11,042 nucleotides of DNA from a virus (lineage: Duplodnaviria; Heunggongvirae; Uroviricota; Caudoviricetes), in IMG/VR virus record IMGVR_UViG_2740892442_000010. The stretch is one strand, 5' to 3'. The translations under genes were made by a program, and so were the position numbers. Under the pieces are notes generated by a model. That model was not told the DNA's origin, searched no databases, and was given only the letters and a program-made list of their open reading frames with translations. The number at the start of each line of letters is the position of its first letter. The first letter of the stretch is position 1. This document shows, in pieces, positions 1-11,042 of this stretch.

Positions 1-282
1 ATGTCTGCCAGCACCCTAATTTCTATTGCAGAACAGGTAGAAGATGTTATGGGGGGCGAGCACTGGTCATTGCACGATCTGCGCAGAACGTGCAAAACAA
101 AAATGGCTGAACTTGGAGTAGCACCTCATGTTTCGGAGAAAATTCTCGGGCATAAGCTCACGGGGATGCTGGCTGTTTATGACCAGTATGACTACATCCC
201 CGAGCAGCAGGACGCAGCAGAATTATGGGCTAAGAAAATTCAAGAGTGTTCGGAAATCAATCCTTTATCTTTGCAAAACTGA
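1..282 (+). CDS. int: Tyrosine recombinase (phage integrase), C-terminal catalytic portion only; 5' end lies left of the window
   Basis: ORF runs from the first base to a stop at 280-282. Translation carries the C-terminal tyrosine-recombinase signature in order: HDLRRT (His-x-x-Arg), LGHK (His), VYDQYDY (candidate catalytic Tyr). The Met at position 1 is internal, not the true start. Confidence 0.8.
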   Translation: MSASTLISIAEQVEDVMGGEHWSLHDLRRTCKTKMAELGVAPHVSEKILGHKLTGMLAVYDQYDYIPEQQDAAELWAKKIQECSEINPLSLQN

Positions 283-469
283 ATAACTTCCTTGTAGCGA
301 AAGAGGCGCCGCCTTTCGGTGGGTGGATTTCTTCCACTTCCCGAGGGAATGGTGTCCCTGATTGCTCCCACTGTTTACGCTTCCGGTAAAAAGTAGTTCT
401 GGAGATACCACCAAGCATCTCCTGAACACGCTCGCGGTTTATTAGAATCGGCTGAATATTGATTGTCAT
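257..469 (-). CDS. Small HTH DNA-binding protein, AlpA/Xis-like (putative excisionase or transcriptional regulator)
   Basis: 70-aa ORF with GGAG 11 nt upstream of the ATG at 469. The segment LGGISRTTFYRKRK...FP resembles the AlpA/excisionase-type helix-turn-helix (L-x-G-[IL]-S-R-[ST]-T-[IF]-Y-R). The 3' end overlaps the integrase stop by 26 nt in convergent orientation, so the C-terminal residues are uncertain. Confidence 0.5.
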   Translation of the reverse strand: MTINIQPILINRERVQEMLGGISRTTFYRKRKQWEQSGTPFPREVEEIHPPKGGASFATRKLFSFAKIKD

Positions 470-590
470 TTGTATGGTTTCTCCATAAAGAAATAAACCG
501 TTCAGTGGCGGTTATTGTCGGTTGCGGTAGATCTGGCGATCTTGAGAAACTGTCAGGCCTCATCGAGTGTGAGGCTGTATGATTCCATAG

Positions 591-935
591 TTAGTCCTTG
601 CGTAGTTCTCTGATTCTTCTGTAAGTCTCTGGTGCTTTGTTTCCGTGTATCTTCATTTCAGACTTCAACAGAGCAACGAGAGAATCCCATTCGTTGAGGA
701 TGCCTTTGAATGCCGGAACGCGCTTTGCAACCTTGTCGAATGAATCTCTGATTTCTGGAATCTGCTCAACAAGTGCAACGCATCGTCGGAAATCGGCTGC
801 GTCATGTGGAGCGCCGAAGTGATGACCATAGATATTCTTTTTCAGTCCACATGCGATTGAGGCAAGAGTTGCGCTACTGATGCCGACATCGCCAGTCGTT
901 TGCCATTTCAAAATCTTCATAGCCAAATCTGACAT
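591..935 (-). CDS. Hypothetical protein, 114 aa from the ATG at 935 (six-frame ORF extends to 962)
   Basis: Minus-strand ORF. The internal ATG at 933-935 is preceded by GGAGA (complement of 942-946) at about 7 nt spacing; the upstream ATG at 960-962 sits inside the loop of a GC hairpin and has no RBS. No recognisable motif. Confidence 0.5.
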   Translation of the reverse strand: MSDLAMKILKWQTTGDVGISSATLASIACGLKKNIYGHHFGAPHDAADFRRCVALVEQIPEIRDSFDKVAKRVPAFKGILNEWDSLVALLKSEMKIHGNKAPETYRRIRELRKD

Positions 936-946
936 TTCTTGTCTCC

Positions 947-969
947 AATAAAAAACCGCCATCAGGCGG
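947..969 (-). terminator. Putative rho-independent terminator on the minus strand (short GC stem plus U-tract)
   Basis: Minus-strand read: CCGCC-TGAT-GGCGG (5-bp all-GC stem, 4-nt loop; + coordinates 956-969) followed immediately by TTTTTTATT (complement of 947-955). The stem is short, so strength is uncertain. Confidence 0.4.
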
Positions 970-1035
970 CTTAGTGTTCTTTCAGTTCTTCAATTCGAAT
1001 ATTGGTTACATTGTTTTCATATATGAATAAATAAT

Positions 1036-1215
1036 TTAGCTTTTTTCGTTGCTTCCGCGTTCTTTATTATTTTTACTAAACTCGTTTTTACCGCGCATTC
1101 CAAATGCGTCTTTAGAGTTGTTGTATCCGCAATCACTGCACACATAATCTCCAGACCATCCACGCCTTGTTTTTTCTTTTGCAATATTTCCAGAACCGCA
1201 TTTTGGACAAGACAT
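1036..1215 (-). CDS. Small zinc-ribbon protein (CxxC-x19-CxxC) with Lys/Asn-rich C-terminal tail
   Basis: ATG at 1213-1215 preceded by GGAGG with 7-nt spacer (minus strand ggaggtagtgatATG). Product MSCPKCGSGN...YVCSDCGYNN has two CxxC pairs typical of a zinc ribbon. The longer ORF to 1248 lacks an RBS. The overlapping ORF 1017..1256 in another frame is rejected. Confidence 0.6.
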   Translation of the reverse strand: MSCPKCGSGNIAKEKTRRGWSGDYVCSDCGYNNSKDAFGMRGKNEFSKNNKERGSNEKS

Positions 1216-1268
1216 ATCACTACCTCCAAAGCATGAGTGAGATGACAACGTAACATTGATTGGAAATT

Positions 1269-1282
1269 AACAATATATTGTT
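1269..1282. promoter_or_regulatory. Perfect 14-bp palindrome AACAATATATTGTT upstream of the zinc-ribbon gene (candidate operator)
   Basis: AACAATA/TATTGTT is exactly self-complementary. It lies in the 96-bp intergenic gap between the Ead stop (1312) and the zinc-ribbon start (1215), 54-67 nt upstream of that ATG. Confidence 0.3.
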
Positions 1283-1311
1283 GATGTAAAAGATATGTAT
1301 AAGATTCGCTA

Positions 1312-2217
1312 TCAGAGCGGCGGTTCTGGTAGCGGCATCCAGTGGGTTACATTGCGGCTCTGCGTTTCGAAGAACTCCTCACCATTGCGGACAACATCAA
1401 AAAACTCACCGTCTCGATATTGCGCATAAAGAACGAATGCGCCATCACATAAAATAATTACGTGCTGACCATCATCTGGCATTCGCTCACTACAGCTTAT
1501 CCAACCATCCGGAGTTACCGGATAGTTGCCAGACAGCGCATTCTGCAACCGTTCCAGCTTCACGTATTCCTGAACTCTGTTTCCGTCGCACGTCTGAAGC
1601 CATTGAGCAGCCTTTTGCGCATCAGTGTGAAAGGCACAAGTGCGACCGTCATCAAATTGCATTTTGTAGAGGTCAGCAACCTGTTCAAACTCCGTTTGTG
1701 GCAAGTTGTAAGTTTGGCTTACAGGTTTGGCACCATGAAGCATGGCGGCACGACAGGCGTTCCAGCCTCTCACCTCTGCAATAGCTGCAACCGCATCAAC
1801 CGCATACATGCTAAGAGGGTTCGGCATTGGTTTTTCTTCCGGTACTACTGGCGATTGCTGTTTAACTTCTAAATCAGCAATTCTGTCAACTACGGCATCT
1901 ACTGCATCTGAAAAACTGAAACAGTTACTCCATTCCGGCCTGTTCCCGGTTGCTGCAAAATACATATCAGCTAAAGCATACTCAGCATGGTCACGCTCGT
2001 TGATGAGTTGCTCTTCGCTTTTCTCCAGTTCAGCAATACGCTTACTCCCATCCGAGATAACGCCCTCGTAATACTCACGCTGCTCGTTGAGTTTTGATTC
2101 AAGTTCACCGAACTTACGGACAAGATATTCAGCGTTTGTTTCGTTAACCTTTAAATCTCGTGGGATGCATTTACCTTTCAGAAATCCATCCATCTCAATT
2201 AGTGACATTTGTTTCAT
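1312..2217 (-). CDS. Ead/Ea22-like early-region protein with C-terminal DUF551-type domain
   Basis: Long minus-strand ORF. The C-terminus ...[12 protein letters not shown] matches the characteristic DUF551 ending found in lambdoid-phage ea-region proteins. Start assigned to the ATG at 2215-2217, which overlaps the upstream stop as ATGA (translational coupling); the ORF track begins at a GTG at 2235. Confidence 0.7.
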
Positions 2218-2396
2218 TTCTTCCCACTCCGCCACATCGCATTCAGATATTTGTTTTGATTTACTGATGGAAAAGAATTTCTCTTAAGCAATTCCTCTCT
2301 CGATGGCATTGGCTTTACGCGTTGGCGAATAATCATTTCTGCCGGAAGAATGCCGGGATTGTATGCAAGTCCTCTCATGGTAAATTCCTCAGTCAT
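2214..2396 (-). CDS. Small hypothetical protein (about 60 aa), translationally coupled within the ea operon
   Basis: The ATG at 2394-2396 overlaps the stop of the upstream ORF (minus strand aATGacTGA), and its own stop overlaps the Ead start (ATGA). No recognisable motif; the start could instead be the next Met (MRGL...). Confidence 0.35.
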
Positions 2397-2685
2397 TACT
2401 GATAGCGCCATAGCGTGAGCGGTAATTACGCAGGCGCGGGTCGATATATTCAGGGAAGTGGGTATATGTGGCTTTGCGGAATGGTCGGATTGATGTCTGG
2501 TAAATTCGCTCTCGTTCTTCTTTCTCTGCAAGCCATATACAGTGGCGAAATTCCTTTTCCTCTTTCGTTTCCTGCGGTAGCGACATTATCCGATCGTAGT
2601 TTTTTCTGAATTTATCCAGCACCTCCGATACGGAATTGCCGGAACAGCGGCGCGGGTCATCCGCACCATACAGAGGCGCTGGCAT
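2389..2685 (-). CDS. Hypothetical protein, 98 aa
   Basis: Minus-strand ORF with AGGAGAA 4 nt upstream of the ATG at 2685, starting 16 nt after the stop of the exonuclease-like ORF. No recognisable domain. Confidence 0.5.
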
Positions 2686-2701
2686 GGTTTTCTCCTGTTG
2701 A

Positions 2702-3199
2702 TTATTTAGCTAACTTTTTCCAGATCGCTGAAACGTATTTGGCTTGGTGAATGGCATCATCAAGCGCGTTGTGGCGAGTTCCTTTGAATGGCATATCTCG
2801 CTTAGGGTCGAATCCTATTACCTTCCCAAGTTCGACGATTGTTCTTACGTCGCGGTCATTCCACCACTGCCACGGAACTGGCTGCCCTGTCAGCGAATAA
2901 CTGTTGCGGAGAATAACGCAGTCAAATGATGCTCCATTCCCCCAAACCTGAACGAATTTGTGGTTGGCGTTCTTTATGATGAATTCAGATAACCATGAAA
3001 GAGCCGTTGAAAGCTCTTGAGTGTTGCTGGTTAGCGATTTTCTGGCTTCTTCACTCTGTTCCATCCACCATAAAATCGTTGAAGCGTCAGGACGCGCCCG
3101 ATATCGCATTGATGACTCAAGCGAGATATTTACCGAGAACTCTTCTCCTGTTTCTCCGGTATATGAATTTACGCCATACAGCAAACAGCGTGAGTTCAT
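2702..3199 (-). CDS. DEDD-type 3'-5' exonuclease-like protein (DnaQ/Rv2179c-like motifs II and III present); probably 5'-truncated at the deletion junction
   Basis: Translation contains WGNGASFD (Exo II-like, FD) and [13 protein letters not shown] (Exo III-like, H-x4-D), but no N-terminal D-x-E motif is visible. None of the candidate starts (3199, 3109, 3064) has a convincing RBS. The first about 11 codons are simply the reverse complement of the terminase-like fragment that begins near 3165. Confidence 0.45.
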
Positions 3200-3761
3200 C
3201 GACGCCGGGCATGACTATCCAGAGCGATGTTTTATGGCTGGTAACCAGCTTGGTAAGTCATTTACTGGTGCTGCTGAAGTCGCGTTTCACCTTACCGGGC
3301 GTTACGCGAACAAGCAACTGGTGATGATGGGGCTGAAGAAACCAGAAACACCTGAAGAGATGGAGATGGTACAGCAGGCTCAACAGCAGCCGCAGCAGCC
3401 ATCAGCAGAGCAAATTCAGGCGCAGGGTATCCTTCTGCAAGGTCAGGCTGAATTGCTCAAGGCAGAGAACCAACAGGCGCAGATTCAGGTTGAAGCCGCC
3501 AAGGTTGAAGCCCAAAACCAACTCAACGCCGCGAAGATTGCAGAAATCTTCAACAATATGGACCTCGACAAGCAGGCAGAACTGCGTGAGTACCTCAAGC
3601 TAGTAGGTCAATTCCAGCAACAGCGCAGCAAAGATGCTCGTGCTAACGCTGAGCTGCTTCTTAAAGATGCAGACCAGACTCATTCACAACGCATGGATTT
3701 CGCGAATCTTATGCGTCAAGTTCAAATCCCCTCCGGCGGAGTAGCCGAGACACCTCAATAA
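3021..3761 (+). pseudogene. Deletion-scar chimera: terminase large subunit N-terminal fragment (about 3165-3305) fused in frame to portal protein C-terminal fragment (about 3305-3761), P22-like
   Basis: Residues [47 protein letters not shown] carry a P-loop ([AG]-x4-G-K-[ST]: AGNQLGKS) typical of a terminase ATPase N-terminus. The sequence then switches abruptly to a Gln/Ala/Glu-rich helical segment (QQAQQQPQQ...[40 protein letters not shown]...) that I recall as the C-terminal barrel of the P22 portal gp1. The P22 order is 3-2-1-8-5 and scaffold/coat genes follow directly. An out-of-frame ATG at 3163-3165 (tatATGAATTTACG) suggests the native start was ATG-GAA-TTT (MEFTPY) with a 1-bp loss. 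Confidence 0.6.
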
Positions 3762-3774
3762 GAGAGAGTTAATC

Positions 3775-4686
3775 ATGGACCAAACCACCGACATTCAGGC
3801 TTCTGAAGAATTAACCCTGCCCGGCAATCATGCAGCGGCATCTGCTGATGGCTTAGTTGTCGATAATGCCAACGACAACGCAGGTCAGGAAGAAGGCTTC
3901 GAGATTGTCCTGAAAGACGATGAGAAACCAAAACAAGACCCGGCAACTAATGCTGAATTTGCCCGTCGCCGCATCGAACGCAAACGCCAGCGTGAGCTTG
4001 AGCAGCAGATGGAAGCGGTTAAGCGTGGAGAGTTGCCGGAGCACCTGCGGGTGAACCCTGAGTTACCAAAACAACCAGACCCTAACGATTATCTTTCCGA
4101 AGATGCACTGGCTAAGTACGACTATGACCAGAGCCGCGCACTGGCTGCCTTCCAGCAGGCAAACAGTGAATGGCAGATCAAGGCTATGGACGCACGAAGC
4201 CAGGCTGTCGCCGAGCAGGGTCGCAAAACTCAGGAGTTCACCCAGCAATCAGCGCAATACGTCGAGGCAGCCCGTAAGCACTACGACGCAGCGGAAAAGC
4301 TCAATATCCCTGACTATCAGGAGAAAGAGGATGCATTCATGCAACTGGTGCCGCCAGCAGTCGGTGCCGACATCATGCGCCTCTTCCCGGAGAAATCCGC
4401 TGCTCTCATGTATCACCTTGGTGCTAATCCTGAAAAAACACGCCAGTTGCTGGCGATGGACGGGCAATCCGCGCTGATTGAACTCACTCGACTGTCAGAA
4501 CGTTTAACTCTCAAGCCTCGAGCCAAGCCTGTTTCAGAAGCCCCGTTACCTGATGAACCAATTCAGGGACACGCTGTTGCTGCAAATATCTCTGCGATTG
4601 AAAAGCAGATGGAAGCGGCAGCAAACAAAAGGGATGTAGAGACGTACCGCAAGCTCAAGGCGCAACTGAATAAAGGAATTCGATAA
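3775..4686 (+). CDS. Phage scaffolding protein (P22 gp8-like), apparently intact, 303 aa
   Basis: RBS-like AGAGAGAG about 7 nt upstream of the ATG at 3775. Same length as P22 gp8, and the N-terminal region ([29 protein letters not shown]) and C-terminal basic coat-binding region ([15 protein letters not shown]) match my recollection of that protein. Stop overlaps the coat start as TAATG. Confidence 0.85.
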
Positions 4687-5732
4687 TGGCATTAAATGAA
4701 GGTCAACTGGTCACGTATGCTCTGGATGAAATCATCGAAACCGTCCAGAATCTGACGCCAATGGCGTCCAAAGTGACAAAATACACCCCTCCGGCAGAAT
4801 CCATGCGGCGTTCAAGCAACACCGTGTGGATGCCTGTTGAGCAGGAAGCGCCAACCCAGACTGGCTGGGATTTAACTGGCAACGCAACTGGGATTCTGGA
4901 ACTCTCCGTGAAATGCAACATGGGCGATCCGGATAACGATTTCTTCGAGCTTCGTGCAGATGACCTGCGTGATGAGCGTTCTTACCGTCGCCGCATCCAG
5001 GCATCCGCTAAAAAACTGGCGAATAACATTGAGTCAGCAATTGCCAAACAGGCAACTGAAATGGGCTCACTTGTTGTTCACGATACCCGCGCAATTGGTC
5101 CATCTACTGGCCTGTCTGGCTGGGATTTTGTGTCTGATGCAGAGCGCCTGATGTTCTCCCGCGAACTCAACCGCGACATGGGCATCAGTTACTTCCTGAA
5201 CCCTGACGATTACCGCAAAGCAGGCCGCAACCTGGTAGATGGTGACATCTTCGGTCGCGTTCCTGAAGAAGCGTATCGCAACGGTACTATTCAGCGTCAG
5301 ATTGCTGGCTTTGATGAAATTCTTCGCTCACCGAAACTTCCGGCAGTTACCAAGTCAACCGCTACTGGTGTAACTGTTTCTGGTGCGCAGAAGTTTAAGC
5401 CGCAGGCATACACCCTTGATACCGATGGTAACAAAGAGAACGTCGACAACCGTGTTGCAACGGTGACCGTATCCTCCACCACCGGATTTAAGCGCGGCGA
5501 CAAAATCAGTTTCACTGGTGTGAAATTCCTGTCTCAGATGGCGAAGAACGTGCTAACTGATGATGCGACTTTCTCAATCACCCGTGTGATCGATGGTACT
5601 CACATCGAAATCACGCCGAAACCGATTGCACTGGATGACGCGTCACTGACAAAAGAAGAGAAGGCTTACGCTAACGTAAACACCTCTCTTGCTGATACCA
5701 CTCCGGTAAACGTTCTGAACACCAGCCTATGA
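4686..5732 (+). CDS. Phage major coat protein (P22 gp5-like), 3'-truncated at 348 aa versus about 430 aa; likely nonfunctional remnant
   Basis: N-terminus [19 protein letters not shown]... and internal segments ([68 protein letters not shown]) match my recollection of the P22 coat protein. The ORF ends after ...[20 protein letters not shown], well short of full length, and the downstream P22 genes (4, 10, 26, 14, 7, 20, 16) are absent. Confidence 0.8.
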
Positions 5733-5823
5733 AAGAGCGATAAATAACGCTGCGAATGCCATCAGACCGCTGTTTGCTACTGAGGCAACACAGCAGTAAC
5801 GTATGGGAAATTGGATTCAATCG

Positions 5824-6213
5824 CTAACATTTTCTTTTTACTTTTCCAACAAAAGCTTTGGTTGAATCCATATTTCTATAACCGGAAATGGTTTTTGACA
5901 TTAAAACTGTTCCAGTAGGATGTATTACCCATGAGTCGATAACGCGTTGAGTTTCGCCATTCGCGCCGATTCCTATGATGGAGTTTTTAGACAATGCTTT
6001 GTAAGCCATGCCGCCCGCATCTGTCCCAGAATATGTGATGCTGGCATCTTCACCGTTTGTCTTAATGATGAATGTTCCACTAAAACCATCTTCTTCCGGA
6101 TGGAAATTATTTCGTTCTGAATAGCTTATTCCGCGCATATCTCCAACGACCCAGCACTCTGCTGTAGCCCCAAAAGATATGAATAAGAACATAGCAGTAA
6201 GAAATTGCTTCAC
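5824..6213 (-). CDS. Exported protein of unknown function with N-terminal signal peptide (moron-like cargo)
   Basis: Strong RBS AAGGAGG with 5-nt spacer before a GTG start at 6211-6213. N-terminus MKQFLTAMFLFISFGATA/ECW has a hydrophobic core and an A-x-A-type cleavage site. No recognisable catalytic motif. Divergent from the adjacent lipoprotein gene. Confidence 0.6.
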   Translation of the reverse strand: MKQFLTAMFLFISFGATAECWVVGDMRGISYSERNNFHPEEDGFSGTFIIKTNGEDASITYSGTDAGGMAYKALSKNSIIGIGANGETQRVIDSWVIHPTGTVLMSKTISGYRNMDSTKAFVGKVKRKC

Positions 6214-6330
6214 GCCAACCTCCTTAGTTTTGAGCAGGATACCATGAAAAAAGTAAACATCTTTTGCCTACTTCACATTTGAATGGTTTGTCATTAGGAT
6301 GTTTCCGGTTTTTTAAATATGGAAATTGAT

Positions 6331-6750
6331 ATGAAGAGGATTATTGGCGTCGTTGCTGGCGCTATATTGTTATCTGGGTGCGCAACTATTGTTGGTGACG
6401 AAACGCAGCTTGTGCAAGTGAACAGCAATCCTTCCGGTGCGAGCTTTAAGGTAAAAGACGAATCAGGCGTGATTGTTGCGCAAGGTAAGACCCCACAAGG
6501 AGTAACTCTTGCCAAGTCAGATGGTAGTTATTTTGGCAAAAAGAGCTACCAGATCACTATGGAAAAGGATGGGTACGAACCAGTTACCCTGCCAATCAAA
6601 GCCAATGCTAATGGCTGGTATATTGGTGGAAACCTTGTGTTTGGTGGGTTAATTGGTTGGCTTGCTGTAGATCCTTTTAATGGTGGGATGTATACCTTGA
6701 AGCCAAAAGAGGCAAACGCATCTCTTATACCATCAACAAAGCAAGACTAA
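6331..6750 (+). CDS. Lipoprotein (lipobox LLSGC) with PEGA-like beta domain and Gly-rich C-terminal segment
   Basis: MKRIIGVVAGAILLSG-C is a canonical signal II peptide with the lipobox Cys. PSGASFKVKDESGVIVAQGKTPQGVTL resembles the PEGA motif; the C-terminal segment GWYIGGNLVFGGLIGWLAVDPFNGGMY is Gly-zipper-like. An upstream in-frame ATG at 6319 is a possible alternative start but has no RBS. Followed by a strong terminator. Confidence 0.7.
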   Translation: MKRIIGVVAGAILLSGCATIVGDETQLVQVNSNPSGASFKVKDESGVIVAQGKTPQGVTLAKSDGSYFGKKSYQITMEKDGYEPVTLPIKANANGWYIGGNLVFGGLIGWLAVDPFNGGMYTLKPKEANASLIPSTKQD

Positions 6751-6758
6751 TAAATAGG

Positions 6759-6781
6759 ACCCACCTTCAGGTGGGTTTTTT
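6759..6781 (+). terminator. Rho-independent terminator (likely bidirectional) between the lipoprotein gene and mnt
   Basis: ACCCACC-TTCA-GGTGGGT (7-bp stem, 4-nt loop) followed by TTTTTT on the + strand, 9 nt after the lipoprotein stop. The last three codons of the convergent mnt ORF lie inside the 3' half of the stem. Confidence 0.65.
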
Positions 6782-7018
6782 GTACAAATCCTTCAGCGTA
6801 TCAAACACCATCTTCCTAACAAGTTCGGACTGCTCATCAGCGATGCGTTCTGCATCGTCTCGATAGTCTGAAATTTTGGATGGCTTTGATACAGCATCAG
6901 TCACTATCTGAACTAATTCTGAATTAAGAGAGCGGCCATTGGATTTGGCTCGCTGTTTTAGTTTTTCCTTTAATTCGTAAAGTAGCCGCAGATTAAATTG
7001 CGGGTCATCTCTTCCCAT
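6767..7018 (-). CDS. mnt: Mnt repressor (ribbon-helix-helix, Arc/MetJ family), P22 Mnt homolog, 83 aa
   Basis: Translation MGRDDPQFNLRLLYELKEKLKQRAKSNGRSLNSELVQIV...DAERIADEQSELVRKMVFDTLKDLYKKPT is near-colinear with P22 Mnt as I recall it (MARDDPHFNFRMPMEVREKLKFRAEANGRSMNSELLQIV...KKMVFDTLKDLYKKTT), with the same length and the RHH beta-strand FNLR motif. GAGG lies 8 nt upstream of the ATG at 7018. Confidence 0.85.
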   Translation of the reverse strand: MGRDDPQFNLRLLYELKEKLKQRAKSNGRSLNSELVQIVTDAVSKPSKISDYRDDAERIADEQSELVRKMVFDTLKDLYKKPT

Positions 7019-7081
7019 TCTTGATGCCTCGCTTTTGTGAGTGGAGCGGCATCTTATTATCTGCTGGTTGCATCCTCAATA

Positions 7082-7096
7082 AGACCACTGTGGTCT
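7082..7096. promoter_or_regulatory. Perfect 15-bp palindrome AGACCAC-T-GTGGTCT, candidate Mnt operator
   Basis: Exact inverted repeat 64 bp upstream of the mnt start codon. It resembles in style the symmetric P22 mnt operator half-sites (GTCCAC/GTGGAC type, recalled). A plausible leftward promoter for mnt (minus strand TTGAGG-17 nt-TAAGAT, + coordinates 7051-7079) sits immediately beside it. Confidence 0.5.
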
Positions 7097-7290
7097 CTTT
7101 ATTTGATTAATAATGCATCACTGCGGCCACGCTGCAGCGATTCCTTGTATCTGGAGCAAATTAAATGACAGATATTATAAATAGGAATTGTTATTTAATA
7201 ATATTTGAAAATGAAAATCATGGACGATAGGAATAAAAGTAGTACTTGTTATTTTTAAGTGACGCATTAAACGCATAAAGCATATGTCTG

Positions 7291-7319
7291 TTGATCAAGA
7301 TTCTTGCTTGTTGTAAAAT
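7291..7319 (+). promoter_or_regulatory. Candidate sigma70-type promoter upstream of the tailspike gene
   Basis: TTGATC (7291-7296), 17-nt spacer, TAAAAT (7314-7319); would give a leader of about 118 nt to the tailspike ATG. The region is AT-rich, so chance matches are likely. Confidence 0.25.
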
Positions 7320-7443
7320 AATTGTTTTGTTCATGTTGCATAGTTTTAAAGTGAATAGAAGATTATTTTTCAAAACAATTGCATCTTTGTCTGCAGTCAT
7401 TCCGTTTTCTTCAATATCTAAATTTTCAAACAGGATGACTAAT

Positions 7444-10176
7444 ATGCCTGATATAACTCCAAATGTTGTAATTGGGATGCCTTCTCAACTCTTCACTATG
7501 GCTCGTTCTTTTAAAGCCGTAGCTAATGGAAAAATTTATATCGGTAAAATTGACACTGACCCTGTAAATCCTGAAAACCAGATTCAGGTTTATGTAGAGA
7601 ATGAAGATGGTTCTCACGTTCCTGTTTCGCAACCAATCGTTATCAATGCTGCTGGATATCCTGTATATAACGGACAGATTGCCAAATTCGTTACTGTGAA
7701 AGGACACTCTATGGCTGTGTACGATGCTTATGGTACGCAGCAGTTCTATTTTCCGAATGTGCTGAAGTATGACCCGGATCAGTTACGGCAGCAATTAGAA
7801 GATCCTGATGGTGCTAAAAAATACCCTGAATTACAGATTGCACGATGGCGGGATGATAAAGACGTTCGCGGGTGGGGGGCGGATGACTCTGGGAATAGAG
7901 ATTCAACACAGGCTTTTCTTGACGCCGCATCTAGCGCAGGAAATAGTGGTTTGGTTCATGTGCCTTCTGGTGAGTTTATAGTTGATGCATCGAAAATAGA
8001 TATTTCACGCTTCTCCGGTGATGGTGTTCTAATCAGTAATGGTGTTCGCATTTCTGTTAATCCGCCGATGCAAAGTTTCTCCATTGGACAAAGAAAACTT
8101 GCGACCCTGAATTTTGGTGATGATATCAATGCGCCAACTATATATGCGAATGCACAAAATGCATTGCAGGGAATAGCTTGTGTAAGGCATGAAGGTATTG
8201 AGAAGGTTTTTATCACTCAACAGGTTGGAGGTTCTAACTGGGGAACGGACACCCTCACAAGGATCAGTGAGTGGCACTATACAAGCGATGGTTCAACTCT
8301 TTATGTTGTGACATTTACAGAGCCATTGCCTCTTGGTCACGGTTCAGATCTTTCTGCCACAATAGAGAACGGTGAACTATATCTGTTTACAACAACAATT
8401 GCTGAGACTGGTTCCTCTCTAGGAGGGAAGGGGTATTCAAAGACAAAATGGAAAGGGGCATCAACATCTGCTGAAGATATAACTCATTACCGAGTATTTG
8501 GTGAGCCGGGTGATAATAATCTGATTAACCTTGCGCAGCGGGCAAGTATTTGTGTATCTAATGATGGGCGATATGTCATATTAATTGCGACATCAAACGC
8601 TGGGACTGGCCGCTTTTTATACGTATATGATCGCAAAGAAGTGGAATCTTCTTCTAACCCAATGAAAGTTAGACCGATTAATGGTCCTGTTCCACTTGTC
8701 CGTGGTAAAGGTCAGTATGGTGCAACACTTCAGGGTATTACATCAGATAGCAGATATATTTACACAATTTGGGGTGGCGTTCCTGCAAGATGCGTAAGGA
8801 CAGTACAGATTTATGATATGGGTGGTACGCTAATACGTTCATTTCCTGTATCACTTGCCGCATCACTTTATACAGAGACTCAGTTAAATGGTTCTGACTC
8901 TAAAATCGGAGTTCCGGTTAGCTTTGAGCCTGAAGGGCTGGCAATAAGAGGTGATGAACTTGTCTGTGGTGCTATGGATGTATGGAAAAGCGCAGGGGAT
9001 GTTGTAAGCCATCGTGGTAAAAATTGGGTAAGTATTGTTACTGGTGATAACAAGGGAAATCTTCCGACAAACAGGTCTTATTGGTTAAAAACATCGCTTG
9101 CAGCGACAAGTGGTGAATGGGATTCAGGCGCAACATATAAATCAGGTGATTATACTCGCAGAAATAAGCATCTGTTTGGAATAGCAAACCTGTCTGATAT
9201 TCTTGGCAACCATCCAGTGCATGGTGCAGAATCCGATCCGTATACCGGAACCGCGCATCAATATTATGCTGGAACTGATATCGCCTTTAACCGTGAGCAC
9301 GGTTCATTTACTATTGCGATATTTGACGAAGCCATTGGAGAGTATACCAAATCCCTCGAGTTGAATTATGGAAATAACCTTAACCTGTTTGATACAGATT
9401 ACGGACATGACAATAATTCATGGGTAAGTACGAAAGCAGTATTCGACTCAAACTTTCGAGGTATGCAGTTCCGTTCTAAAGATGGGAATACTGCGGGTGG
9501 TGCTTATATTGATATCCATGCTGCTGATTGTCCATCTGCGGCTGGTGAGTTGATACTTGCCTCTACAGATGGAGGTGTCGTCAGACTTAAGCAGGGGAAT
9601 GTAACAGTATTTTCTGCGACTAAAGATACTACATCGACATGGGCGACGACGACATTAAGGCCAACAACTGATAACCAGGTATCACTTGGAAGGTCCGTTA
9701 ACCGCTTTTCTCAGGTCTACGCAGGGACTGCAACTATAAATACATCTGATGCAACAGAGAAAACGGAAGTCAGAACTCTTTCCGATAAAGAGCAGGCGGT
9801 TGGGTTAGCTCTTGTTGATGAAATTGGTTTTTATCAATGGCTTGATAGTGTAAAAAATAAGGGAGCTGATGCCAGACTTCATGCCGGACTTACGGTGCAA
9901 CGGGCAATGGAAATATTCAGAGAGAATGGACTTGATCCATTTAAATACGGAGCGATCTGCTATGACAGATGGGATGCATATACAGATACAGATCCAGCTG
10001 TTTATGATGATGAAGGTAACCTTGTTCGTGAGGCTATAACTATTACGCATGAAGCAGGAGAACGCTATGCATTCAGAAATGATGAATTACAGTATCTAAT
10101 GATTGCTGCATTAGGTATACGTCAGAAAAATATTATAAAGAGGATTGAAGAACTGGAAAATAAGCTTGCAAATTAA
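7444..10176 (+). CDS. Phage tailspike protein, mosaic: P22-type N-terminal head-binding domain, divergent receptor-binding/enzymatic body, C-terminal intramolecular-chaperone-like (peptidase S74-type) domain; 910 aa
   Basis: Start set at the ATG at 7444, with AGGA 8 nt upstream; the ORF track's upstream extension from 7291 is AT-rich and non-protein-like. The first about 115 aa ([59 protein letters not shown]...NVLKYDPDQ) closely match the P22 gp9 head-binding domain ([34 protein letters not shown]..., recalled), and similarity ends right after KYDPDQ. The C-terminal about 143 aa from Ser at 9745-9747 ([10 protein letters not shown]...) fit the S-D-x-x-x-K pattern of autocleaving chaperone domains. 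Confidence 0.85.
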
Positions 10177-10258
10177 CTATTTTACTGACACCTTAAGTCT
10201 CAATATTACCAATTGAAGTCTATGTTTTTTGGGTGTTTTAGTAATTTGTTATAGATAA

Positions 10259-10297
10259 ATGTCACTCCTTAAAGATATCGCATTCTAGGAGTGACAT
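10259..10297. other. Perfect 11-bp inverted repeat (ATGTCACTCCT / AGGAGTGACAT) with 17-nt loop in the convergent intergenic region
   Basis: Arms at 10259-10269 and 10287-10297 are exactly complementary, lying between the tailspike stop (10176) and the acetyltransferase stop (10332). No adjacent U-tract on either strand, so it is not a canonical intrinsic terminator. Confidence 0.4.
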
Positions 10298-10331
10298 GTG
10301 ATTTACTTGTCGTTCAATATATGGTGTGTTT

Positions 10332-11042
10332 TTATTGTTTTTCTTTTGTTAGGTTCCAATATTCACTTGTGGTTTTTATGGAGTCCTTATTAGGCTTTAC
10401 ATAAGGTTTATGTATGGAGAGATGAGGTCTTTCCCAGGCAATGTCTTTTTTTATTACTCTTGCTGGAACTCCTGCTGCAATAGAGTTATTTGGGACGTGT
10501 CCTTTAACAACAGCTGCATAGCCAATAACACTACCACTTTCGATTTCTGCACCACCAAGTATTGCCGCTCGGCGGCCAACCCAGACATGACTTCCAATAT
10601 AAATAGATTTTGGCATATTTATACGTTCACCTGTTACTACACTAAAAATAGGGTGGGAGTCATCAGTTTTAACTTCATTTCCACTTGAAAACATGCAGTC
10701 ATCGCCAATAATTATGCTTGAGTTTTCTACAGCAGAAATCATACCTTTACCAGTGCAAGTGAAATCAGAGCCTATTTTTATGGAGGAATTCTCACCCACT
10801 CTTATATGGGCTTGTATACCTTTGTTTGCGATATGGCATGGGCCAATTTCAAAATACCCATTGTTGCAGTCAAAATATATCTCAAAATATTTTAATGATG
10901 CATCTTTATGAATGATAAGTTTATTATTAGATCCTCTAAACTGAATTAGTTTGACGTCACAACTACCTTCGTACTGGATCTCATTACCCATTTCATCAGA
11001 ATACTTCTCTGCTTTTGTTAAAACAACTTTTCTAATTTTCAT
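10332..11042 (-). CDS. Hexapeptide-repeat (left-handed beta-helix) acetyltransferase; start coincides with the window edge, so the 5' end may extend beyond
   Basis: The C-terminal half IGSHVWVGRRAAILGGAEIESGSVIGYAAVVKGHVPNNSIAAGVPARVIKK shows the [LIV]-G-x4 hexapeptide periodicity and the AAGVPARVI ending typical of the LacA/Maa/NodL/WbbJ-like O-acetyltransferase family. Visibly AT-rich coding sequence. The ATG at 11040-11042 is the last codon in the window. Confidence 0.75.
   Translation of the reverse strand: MKIRKVVLTKAEKYSDEMGNEIQYEGSCDVKLIQFRGSNNKLIIHKDASLKYFEIYFDCNNGYFEIGPCHIANKGIQAHIRVGENSSIKIGSDFTCTGKGMISAVENSSIIIGDDCMFSSGNEVKTDDSHPIFSVVTGERINMPKSIYIGSHVWVGRRAAILGGAEIESGSVIGYAAVVKGHVPNNSIAAGVPARVIKKDIAWERPHLSIHKPYVKPNKDSIKTTSEYWNLTKEKQ

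Follow-up and report, generated by a model that had tools for sequence, protein, structure and literature searches.

Cryptic lambdoid and P22-like remnants in Escherichia coli are marked by several internal deletions with short microhomologies, by IS insertion in the integrase gene, by loss of the regulatory, replication and lysis modules, and by chimeric ORFs at the junctions, with some complete genes kept by chance. Resident elements of another kind, the phage satellites, alter phage capsid assembly: SaPI1 CpmB acts as an internal scaffold and redirects the size of the capsid; P4 Sid, which lacks a phage homologue, assembles into an external cage; and SaPIbov5 Ccm has a complete capsid fold with 23% identity to that of its helper (PMC6893505). 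In P22 itself, the scaffolding protein gp8 is present in about 250-300 copies per procapsid and binds coat through a motif at residues 271-300 (PMC9965877).

The locus described here shares each of these features of cryptic prophages. It was analysed in a window of 11,042 nucleotides (the whole stretch of DNA studied), which corresponds to the E. coli TUM10008 chromosome between an integrase gene split by IS1 and thrS. A preliminary description of this window had noted a full-length scaffolding gene beside a truncated coat gene, and had offered two readings: an accident of decay, or a decoy that poisons capsid assembly in the manner of SaPI CpmB and P4 Sid. Our analysis indicates that the segment is very probably a neutral relic of accidental prophage decay, and we found no indication that the scaffolding gene was kept as an anti-phage weapon.

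Deletion junctions in a P22-like prophage

The remnant is about 12 kb long and derives from a P22-like (Lederbergvirus) prophage of about 40 kb adjoining thrS. An intact sister prophage with the complete P22 gene order occupies the same chromosomal site in strain MS 16-3, and the remnant is collinear with it in blocks at 99.3-100% identity, the exception being a divergent mnt segment at 6866-7125. The integrase gene is disrupted by IS1. The repressor, replication, antiterminator, late promoter and lysis modules are gone, as are most virion genes, and most head-completion and ejection genes are missing. The remnant thus combines collinearity with an intact prophage and absence of the induction and virion modules, as expected of a defective prophage. 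There is no essential difference from the cryptic lambdoid and P22-like remnants, although this one is unusually young, with 99.7-100% identity to the intact sister over most shared segments.

Three deletions, of 15.9, 3.0 and 7.4 kb, were identified, each with 2-4 bp of microhomology at its junction; their gene content was taken from the gene list of the intact prophage. Junction A (3160-3162; TAT microhomology in a three-way alignment) joins the exonuclease gene to the terminase large subunit at about codon 35. In BLAST coordinates, window positions 1-3162 correspond to L004 5536-8695 and positions 3160-3304 to L004 24604-24748. The roughly 15.9 kb lost at this junction held ssb, an erf-like recombinase gene, kil, the repressor gene, cro, the replication and nin genes, the antiterminator (gene 23 equivalent), the lysis genes and the small terminase gene. 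The early-left 3'-5' exonuclease gene (2702-3199, minus strand) is 5'-truncated: its native sequence stops at junction A (3162), its first 12 codons are antisense terminase DNA, it matches Pfam PF16473 from profile position 27 of 177, and it measures 498 nt in the window versus 549 nt in MS 16-3.

On the other side of this junction lies a fragment of the terminase large subunit gene (3163-3304, plus strand; about codons 35-82 of 499), which is 100% identical to L004 24604-24748 and gives a weak Pfam match to Terminase_6N. Junction B (3303-3304; TA microhomology, about 2.96 kb lost, from alignments and BLAST coordinates) fuses it in frame to a C-terminal portal fragment (3303-3761, plus strand; codons 570-721 of 721) that is 100% identical to L004 27711-28169, spans positions 558-673 of 681 of the portal family phrog_156 and closes at the native portal stop. 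The resulting chimeric terminase::portal ORF of 175 aa (3234-3761, plus strand), a RefSeq CDS in TUM10008, is a by-product of junction B. Junction C (5717-5720; GAAC microhomology in a three-way alignment) lies at the far end of the head segment, where positions 3303-5720 correspond to L004 27711-30128 and positions 5717-6865 to L004 37573-38721. About 7.4 kb is lost there, comprising the C-terminus of coat, gp4, gp10, gp26, gp14, gp7, gp20 and most of gp16; the 3'-terminal 79 nt are what remains of the gp16-like DNA-transfer gene (5721-5799, plus strand), out of frame with coat, to which they give a new stop codon. An Rfam scan of the whole window returned no RNA family, and searches for repeats and tandem repeats returned only short chance matches.

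These junctions suggest a simple history. A P22-like prophage of about 40 kb would have integrated between espL1 and thrS and would then have shrunk by about 26 kb in three deletions, each by illegitimate recombination at a microhomology of 2-4 bp, with IS1 inserting into the prophage integrase gene. One block, bounded by portal codon 570 and coat codon 345, would have been retained, and the 912-bp scaffolding gene was kept whole because no deletion endpoint landed inside it. Relaxed constraint would now be starting to show, in two private non-synonymous changes, one of them at an invariant glycine of the coat-binding turn.

The scaffolding gene and the truncated coat gene

The scaffolding gene (3775-4686, plus strand) has 303 codons. 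Its product matches Pfam PF09306 over positions 1-301 of 303 (E 3e-178, 592 bits), a full-length family match, and aligns over residues 1-303 with the 303-aa P22 gp8 chain (PDB 8i1v_H) at 84.9% identity, with the same length and domain layout; an NCBIfam search with the head genes gave no match. The Shine-Dalgarno-like sequence upstream is native: the stretch before the ATG at 3775, AAGAGAGAG-TTAATC, is identical in the intact MS 16-3 prophage. The stop codon and the start codon of coat share bases (TAATG at 4684-4688). The ribosome-binding sequences and the translational coupling of scaffold to coat are preserved.

The protein differs at only one of 303 residues from the scaffold of Escherichia phage APC_JM3.2. 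Codon 286 (4630-4632, plus strand) is AGG (Arg), whereas all relatives have GGG (Gly). Each of 120 homologues compared (58-99% identity) has glycine at this position, so that the arginine of the remnant is unique among 121 sequences. Residue 286 corresponds to G287 of P22 gp8 and falls within the coat-binding motif; in the predicted structure it sits mid-turn between helices 266-284 and 288-302, which form the C-terminal coat-binding helix-turn-helix. In our literature search, P22 G287 was named only in NMR work. The basic residues R292 and K295 are kept (P22 R293 and K296, which bind the coat N-arm). Scaffold function may be lost through G286R. The preliminary description of the gene as intact holds for its reading frame and not for this otherwise invariant residue.

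The coat gene (4686-5732, plus strand) encodes 348 aa: native codons 1-345 of 431, followed by ACC AGC CTA TGA. The Thr-Ser-Leu-stop tail is read from foreign DNA, the 3' end of the gp16-like gene. Alignment with full-length 431-aa coats places the end of native sequence at residue 345 (80%), and the match to PF11651 covers profile positions 1-344 of 423, short of a complete HK97 fold with its I-domain; RefSeq annotates the fragment as a pseudogene. In P22 gp5 numbering, with domain limits taken from PMC9965877, the fragment ends at the end of the I-domain and lacks the P-domain (358-416), with its beta-sheet, and part of the A-domain (346-357 and 417-430). With these residues missing, stable folding is doubtful. 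The fragment is 98-99% identical to full-length coats and 72% identical to P22 gp5 over residues 1-345, from which the early stop and a Q41R change set it apart; codon 41 (4806-4808, plus strand), in the F-loop, is CGG (Arg) versus Gln in relatives and is private to the remnant. The scaffold-binding N-arm residues D14, E15 and E18 are retained (role: PMC9965877).

The architecture given in the preliminary description is thus confirmed in most respects: the length of the scaffold ORF and its preserved start and ribosome-binding-like sequence, the coat cut at about 80%, and the reduction of portal and terminase to fragments, which we find to be joined in frame.

Age of the clone, substitutions and expression

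Queries spanning each junction found it in only one of 5,426 complete E. coli genomes, TUM10008 itself. In a large collection, the truncated coat was matched exactly on 118 contigs, the scaffold with R286 on 123 and the terminase::portal fusion on 109, and one and the same neighbourhood was present on all 24 contigs read. Comparison of the window with five other copies over 7-11 kb showed no more than one SNP in each, besides a 1-nt deletion of the window's own. Judged by this near-identity of all copies examined, the remnant is one young clone. Its presence in more than 100 assemblies indicates stable inheritance, which, given the near-zero divergence, is uninformative on selection in either direction. 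Of the 219 complete genomes that carry this head module, 216 retain 80% or more of scaffold and coat together (TUM10008 itself being included, at about 88%), and the scaffold-plus-coat query revealed no further genome with a similarly truncated coat. Other decayed copies (P0047, P0048) have deletions inside the scaffolding gene itself.

Over the scaffold and coat codons 1-345, two sites distinguish the remnant from MS 16-3, both non-synonymous and both private to the remnant: G286R in the scaffold and Q41R in coat, alleles not found outside it. Private changes in functional lineages, by comparison, number four non-synonymous and 25 synonymous, and MS 16-3 differs from phage APC_JM3.2 by three non-synonymous and 27 synonymous changes (Fisher p = 0.02; the p value lies at about 0.02-0.03 and the remnant sample is small, at two substitutions only). 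The pattern would be a first sign of relaxed rather than purifying selection. Under neutral drift, the scaffolding gene should have gained about 0.7 substitutions and would have escaped nonsense mutation with a probability of 0.97, so that an open scaffold ORF is the neutral expectation in so young a clone. The preliminary description had named inactivating substitutions in the scaffold as evidence against a decoy, and G286R, on its predicted effect, comes close to being one.

A consensus scan found no sigma-70-like site on the plus strand between 1279 and 4773, and scans of 1-6400 found no promoter or terminator consensus upstream of the scaffolding gene, although with such a simple consensus search read-through transcription may still occur. 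Unlike the P22 head module, the remnant lacks the late promoter and the antiterminator; since all regulatory genes were deleted with them, the head genes have no dedicated expression, and we infer that they are not expressed. None of the 10 window proteins matched PADLOC-DB at E <= 0.01.

Alternative readings and comparison with capsid-redirecting satellites

The decoy reading supposes that the remnant scaffold, with or without the coat fragment, disturbs procapsid assembly of an infecting P22-like phage. The scaffold could possibly co-oligomerise with that of the phage and bind coat abnormally, and the coat fragment, with its scaffold-binding N-arm, could possibly cap growing shells. Both ORFs are open, coupled and preceded by native Shine-Dalgarno-like sequences; R286 lies within the coat-binding motif, where a dominant-negative protein is conceivable in principle; and satellites do redirect assembly by scaffold-like and capsid-like proteins (PMC6893505). 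However, the deletions have removed the native late promoter and the antiterminator, with no consensus replacement, and at the copy number given above any leaky remnant scaffold would be far outnumbered by the phage's own. The private scaffold change falls on the invariant glycine of the coat-binding turn, stable folding of the coat fragment is doubtful for want of parts of the HK97 fold, and the substitutions fit relaxed rather than purifying selection. The architecture occurs in one clone, with no convergent occurrences among the 219 complete genomes, deletions enter the scaffolding gene in other lineages, and there is neither a PADLOC match nor any satellite feature; our literature searches on prophage-encoded scaffold or capsid decoys yielded satellite systems only. 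We therefore regard the decoy proposal as very unlikely. A narrower form, in which R286 scaffold and coat fragment made by low-level read-through act as a dominant-negative pair that cuts the yield of superinfecting P22-like phage, is highly improbable; there the remnant may be a capsid assembly blocker born of decay, not design. Were the decoy real, it would mean that the leftovers of decayed genes can be recruited to inhibit assembly; we found no pointer to this here.

Quite unlikely too is a role as a passive recombination reservoir, in which the 2.4 kb of head-module DNA is a homologous-recombination substrate for infecting phages. At the nucleotide level, the segment is more than 98% (98-100%) identical to the head genes of phage APC_JM3.2 and of numerous P22-like prophages in E. 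coli, and temperate phages take up defective-prophage DNA by recombination (PMC3945230); marker rescue or allele exchange is thus possible, but as a consequence of the presence of the DNA rather than a selected function. No sequence sign points to selection for such a role, the remnant has lost its own erf-like and ssb recombination genes, and exchange would spread G286R and Q41R, which were not found elsewhere. A PICI- or P4-like satellite with scaffold and capsid genes of its own has next to no probability: capsid-like proteins are encoded by some PICIs (PMC6893505), but here the integrase is split by IS1, replication and packaging modules are absent, and the scaffold is one residue away from that of a true phage. 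Simple deletions aside, the element is collinear with a complete prophage of the P22 type, which contradicts this reading. Accidental decay, the other reading of the preliminary description, is well supported by the microhomology junctions, the intact sister at the same site, the near-invariant young clone, the neutrally expected open ORF and lineage-private changes that are all non-synonymous.

A caution for studies of this kind is that an intact ORF in a young remnant is no evidence of selection; for the scaffolding gene studied here, neutrality alone gives a probability of about 0.97 that the frame is still open. Researchers of P22 assembly may find a useful natural variant in R286, the private replacement of glycine by arginine in the coat-binding turn.

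Comparison with the satellites shows how far the likeness extends. SaPI1 CpmB, which acts with CpmA, is like the remnant scaffold alpha-helical, related to phage scaffolds and encoded by a resident chromosomal element, and it too has a C-terminal coat-binding motif (PMC6893505). However, CpmB is small and diverged, with only the C-terminal motif in common with the helper scaffold, and belongs to the conserved cpmA-cpmB cluster by which a mobilisable island exploits its helper (PMC6893505), whereas the remnant is an immobile deletion element with a full-length phage scaffold carrying one substitution. With P4 Sid and SaPIbov5 Ccm, only the general idea of a resident protein that alters phage capsid assembly is common (PMC6893505); against the complete fold of Ccm stands a coat fragment of incomplete fold, 98-99% identical to phage coats. 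Mobilisable satellites have their own integration, replication and helper-exploitation modules, which the remnant lacks, and their capsid redirectors are diverged proteins, whereas here the scaffold differs at one of 303 residues. The locus is instead of an already known type and of little biological weight in itself: textbook prophage decay, seen at an early stage.

Scaffold, coat and neighbouring genes

The scaffold gene is full length, as the preliminary description had it: the open reading frame at 3775-4686 encodes 303 residues, matches Pfam PF09306 end to end and aligns over residues 1-303 with the 303-residue P22 gp8 chain of PDB 8i1v. The protein is 84.9% identical to P22 gp8 and one residue away from the scaffold of Escherichia phage APC_JM3.2. 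The start region is intact, the ATG being preceded by AAGAGAGAG-TTAATC, and an intact prophage has the identical upstream sequence. The scaffold stop and coat start overlap (TAATG), and the coat reading frame (4686-5732), whose match to the P22 coat profile runs from position 1 to 344 of 423, is native to residue 345, or 80% of the 431 residues of full-length coats, and then continues with Thr-Ser-Leu-stop. Terminase and portal are indeed fragments: terminase large subunit codons ~35-82 are in frame with portal codons 570-721, and the chimeric reading frame at 3234-3761 (plus strand) comprises terminase codons 59-82 and this C-terminal portal region. Annotation pipelines label the chimera as either a terminase-domain or a portal protein. 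The feature is thus real and was correctly described in all details.

With domain limits taken from PMC9965877, the coat fragment retains the complete I-domain (222-345), the P-domain spine helix and the larger part of the A-domain, as well as the N-arm, F-loop and E-loop. Missing are P-domain segment 358-416, where the beta-sheet of that domain lies, and two A-domain segments (346-357 and 417-430). A product of this kind is predicted to be incapable of a complete HK97 fold.

The TUM10008 chromosome of E. coli (NZ_CP135658.1) matches the window across all 11,042 bases, the one difference being a 1-base deletion in the window in a G run near 305. This deletion, absent from TUM10008 and four other assemblies, breaks a 76-residue excisionase-like reading frame (240-470, minus strand) and could be a sequencing error or a genuine frameshift of this copy. 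The flanks in TUM10008 are an IS1-split integrase gene beside a frameshifted espL1 on one side and thrS on the other. The annotated order runs from the integrase 3' end through minus-strand early-left genes (DUF551, DUF2737, anti-RecBCD, 3'-5' exonuclease) to the plus-strand 'terminase large subunit domain-containing protein', scaffolding protein and P22 major capsid protein pseudogene ('missing C-terminus'), followed by two small genes without assigned function, an Arc/Mnt-family repressor, a tailspike and an acyltransferase. The IS1A element that splits the integrase gene lies just upstream of the window (14172-14869 of locus L001) and, together with the deletions described below, has immobilised the element.

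The exonuclease gene (2702-3199, minus strand) is annotated as a normal CDS; its native N-terminus was lost at the first deletion junction, its first 12 codons are now antisense terminase DNA, and the truncated product is probably inactive. The tailspike (7444-10176, plus strand) is complete at 910 residues, with a P22 head-binding domain and a Peptidase_S74 chaperone domain. The hexapeptide-repeat acyltransferase (10332-11042, minus strand) adjoins thrS, and could be a surface-polysaccharide-modifying moron still of use to the host. The two small genes, both conserved in phages, belong to phrog_2651 (5824-6213, minus strand; no assigned function) and phrog_6823 (6319-6750, plus strand; weak PEGA/transthyretin-like similarity), and are located between the ejection genes and immI, the position occupied in P22 by superinfection-exclusion genes. 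Searches of the window against Rfam and the PADLOC defence profiles found no family and no match, respectively, and a repeat search found nothing notable.

Origin and spread of the remnant

An intact ~40-kb P22-like prophage occupies the same chromosomal site in E. coli MS 16-3. Its complete order is integrase, recombination, immunity, replication, nin, antiterminator, lysis, terminase, portal, scaffold, coat, head-completion, ejection, immI, tailspike and the same acyltransferase as in the window, identical in protein sequence. BLAST of the window against this prophage (locus L004) gave collinear blocks: window 1-3162 corresponds to L004 5536-8695 (8 mismatches, 4 gaps), 3160-3304 to 24604-24748 (0 differences), 3303-5720 to 27711-30128 (2 differences), 5717-6865 to 37573-38721 (8 differences) and 7126-11042 to 40159-44075 (9 differences). 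The blocks show that the remnant arose by three deletions, of about 15.9, 3.0 and 7.4 kb, and their overlaps, in agreement with three-way alignments, define junction microhomologies of 3, 2 and 4 bp (TAT, TA and GAAC). Microhomology this short typically marks illegitimate recombination. The scaffold gene is whole because it falls by chance within the block that was kept, which extends from portal codon 570 as far as coat codon 345. Between the last two blocks, 6866-7125 (part of the mnt-like repressor region, 6767-7125) carries a divergent mnt allele with ~80% nucleotide identity to MS 16-3, with neither arc nor ant present; this segment reflects either a fourth deletion or a mosaic exchange.

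Lost with the first deletion were cro and the repressor, the replication genes, late-gene antiterminator, lysis genes and small terminase, and also the region between the antiterminator and lysis genes, where the late promoter of P22-like phages sits. A consensus scan found no sigma-70-like site on the plus strand across 1279-4773; the nearest are at 4773-4800, within the coat gene, and at 6272-6300, downstream, and site counts are lower than in shuffled sequence. The upstream neighbours of the head genes are minus-strand genes and junction DNA. The head genes therefore appear, as far as promoter prediction goes, to have no dedicated expression route, though they may be transcribed by read-through.

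Each junction occurs in 1 of 5,426 complete E. coli genomes. In a large protein collection, exact matches to the truncated coat, scaffold and terminase::portal fusion were found on 118, 123 and 109 contigs, which rules out a singleton, and the neighbourhood was the same on all contigs read (24/24 for coat, 24/24 for scaffold). Over 7-11 kb, four independent assemblies and TUM10008 match the window exactly except for its own 1-base deletion and a single SNP in the acyltransferase gene, at 10513. The remnant marks a single young clone, and its frequency reflects clonal inheritance. Divergence within the clone is too small for a selection test.

Constraint on the scaffold and coat genes

Across about 2,560 sites, the head block and MS 16-3 show 2 differences, a rate that predicts ~0.7 substitutions for the scaffold gene. 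Since a stop codon results from about 4% of all possible substitutions, a wholly unconstrained scaffold frame would remain open with a computed probability of about 0.97, and the intact frame is uninformative on selection.

Changes were polarised with MS 16-3, NRG 857C and phage APC_JM3.2. The only remnant-private sites in scaffold and coat 1-345 are 4630 (GGG to AGG, scaffold G286R) and 4807 (CAG to CGG, coat Q41R), both non-synonymous, whereas private changes in the functional lineages comprise 4 non-synonymous and 25 synonymous. MS 16-3 and APC_JM3.2 differ at 3 non-synonymous and 27 synonymous codons (contrast with the two remnant changes, Fisher p = 0.02), and none of the 7 scaffold differences alters the protein. 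The direction, in this small sample, suggests relaxed constraint on the remnant. The scaffold is intact in its reading frame only, given the private change G286R.

Residue 286 aligns with G287 of P22 gp8 and is Gly in 120/120 homologues (58-99% identity), with Arg in the window only. In an AlphaFold2 model (118 homologues; pLDDT about 77-81 in this region) helices span 266-284 and 288-302, which places residue 286 in the middle of a three-residue turn. In the 2.6 Å P22 procapsid, the coat-docking helix-loop-helix of gp8 comprises residues 271-300; its R293 and K296 bind D14, E15 and E18 of the coat N-arm, and S285, two residues ahead of the Gly, forms a bond with N4 of the coat (PMC9965877). 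Replacement of this invariant turn Gly by a bulky, charged residue plausibly causes loss or alteration of function. The changed coat residue, Q41, is part of the F-loop (residues 34-50), and all ten relatives compared, P22 included, conserve it.

The scaffold-coat module is present in 219 complete E. coli genomes, 216 of which retain 80% or more of each of the two genes; most of the matches listed, indeed nearly all, are at 100%, with TUM10008, at about 88%, within this class. No second independent arrangement of scaffold plus truncated coat was seen among the 219. Deletions do reach into the scaffold gene in other E. coli: two independent deletion fusions of the same gene are P0047, in which lysis protein 1-125 precedes scaffold residues 25-303, and P0048, in which an unrelated C-terminal sequence follows scaffold residues 1-258, each on one contig. 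In addition, some P22-like prophages of other E. coli (matches H128-H132) carry inside the scaffold-coat segment a ~590-bp insertion with an HNH endonuclease annotation, which may represent a homing endonuclease of the head module.

Decay, interference and satellite systems

The preliminary description allowed for either an accident of decay or interference by the resident scaffold or coat fragment with capsid assembly of an infecting P22-like phage. Our analysis strongly favours an ordinary product of prophage decay, given the microhomology deletions, the intact sister prophage at the same site, the young clone and a reading frame whose openness is expected neutrally. Interference with an infecting phage is highly improbable. 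Against it stand the regulatory anatomy and the pattern of substitutions, the replacement of the invariant coat-binding Gly, a coat fold that is incomplete, and the failure of the arrangement to recur. The remnant DNA may also act as a passive recombination substrate for infecting phages, a role open to any such remnant (PMC3945230); this would be a consequence of its presence and not a function.

The suggested analogy with SaPI CpmB and P4 Sid fails in those defining features that could be tested, and mechanism and context differ. CpmB is a small diverged dimer that has only a C-terminal motif in common with the helper scaffold, and belongs to a conserved cpmA-cpmB cluster carried by a mobilisable island (PMC6893505), whereas the remnant, an immobile element derived by deletion from a full prophage, encodes a phage scaffold with one substitution. 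Unlike this scaffold, Sid is an external cage protein without a phage homologue, and Ccm has a complete capsid fold and 23% identity to the capsid protein of its helper (PMC6893505), whereas the remnant coat is a fragment.
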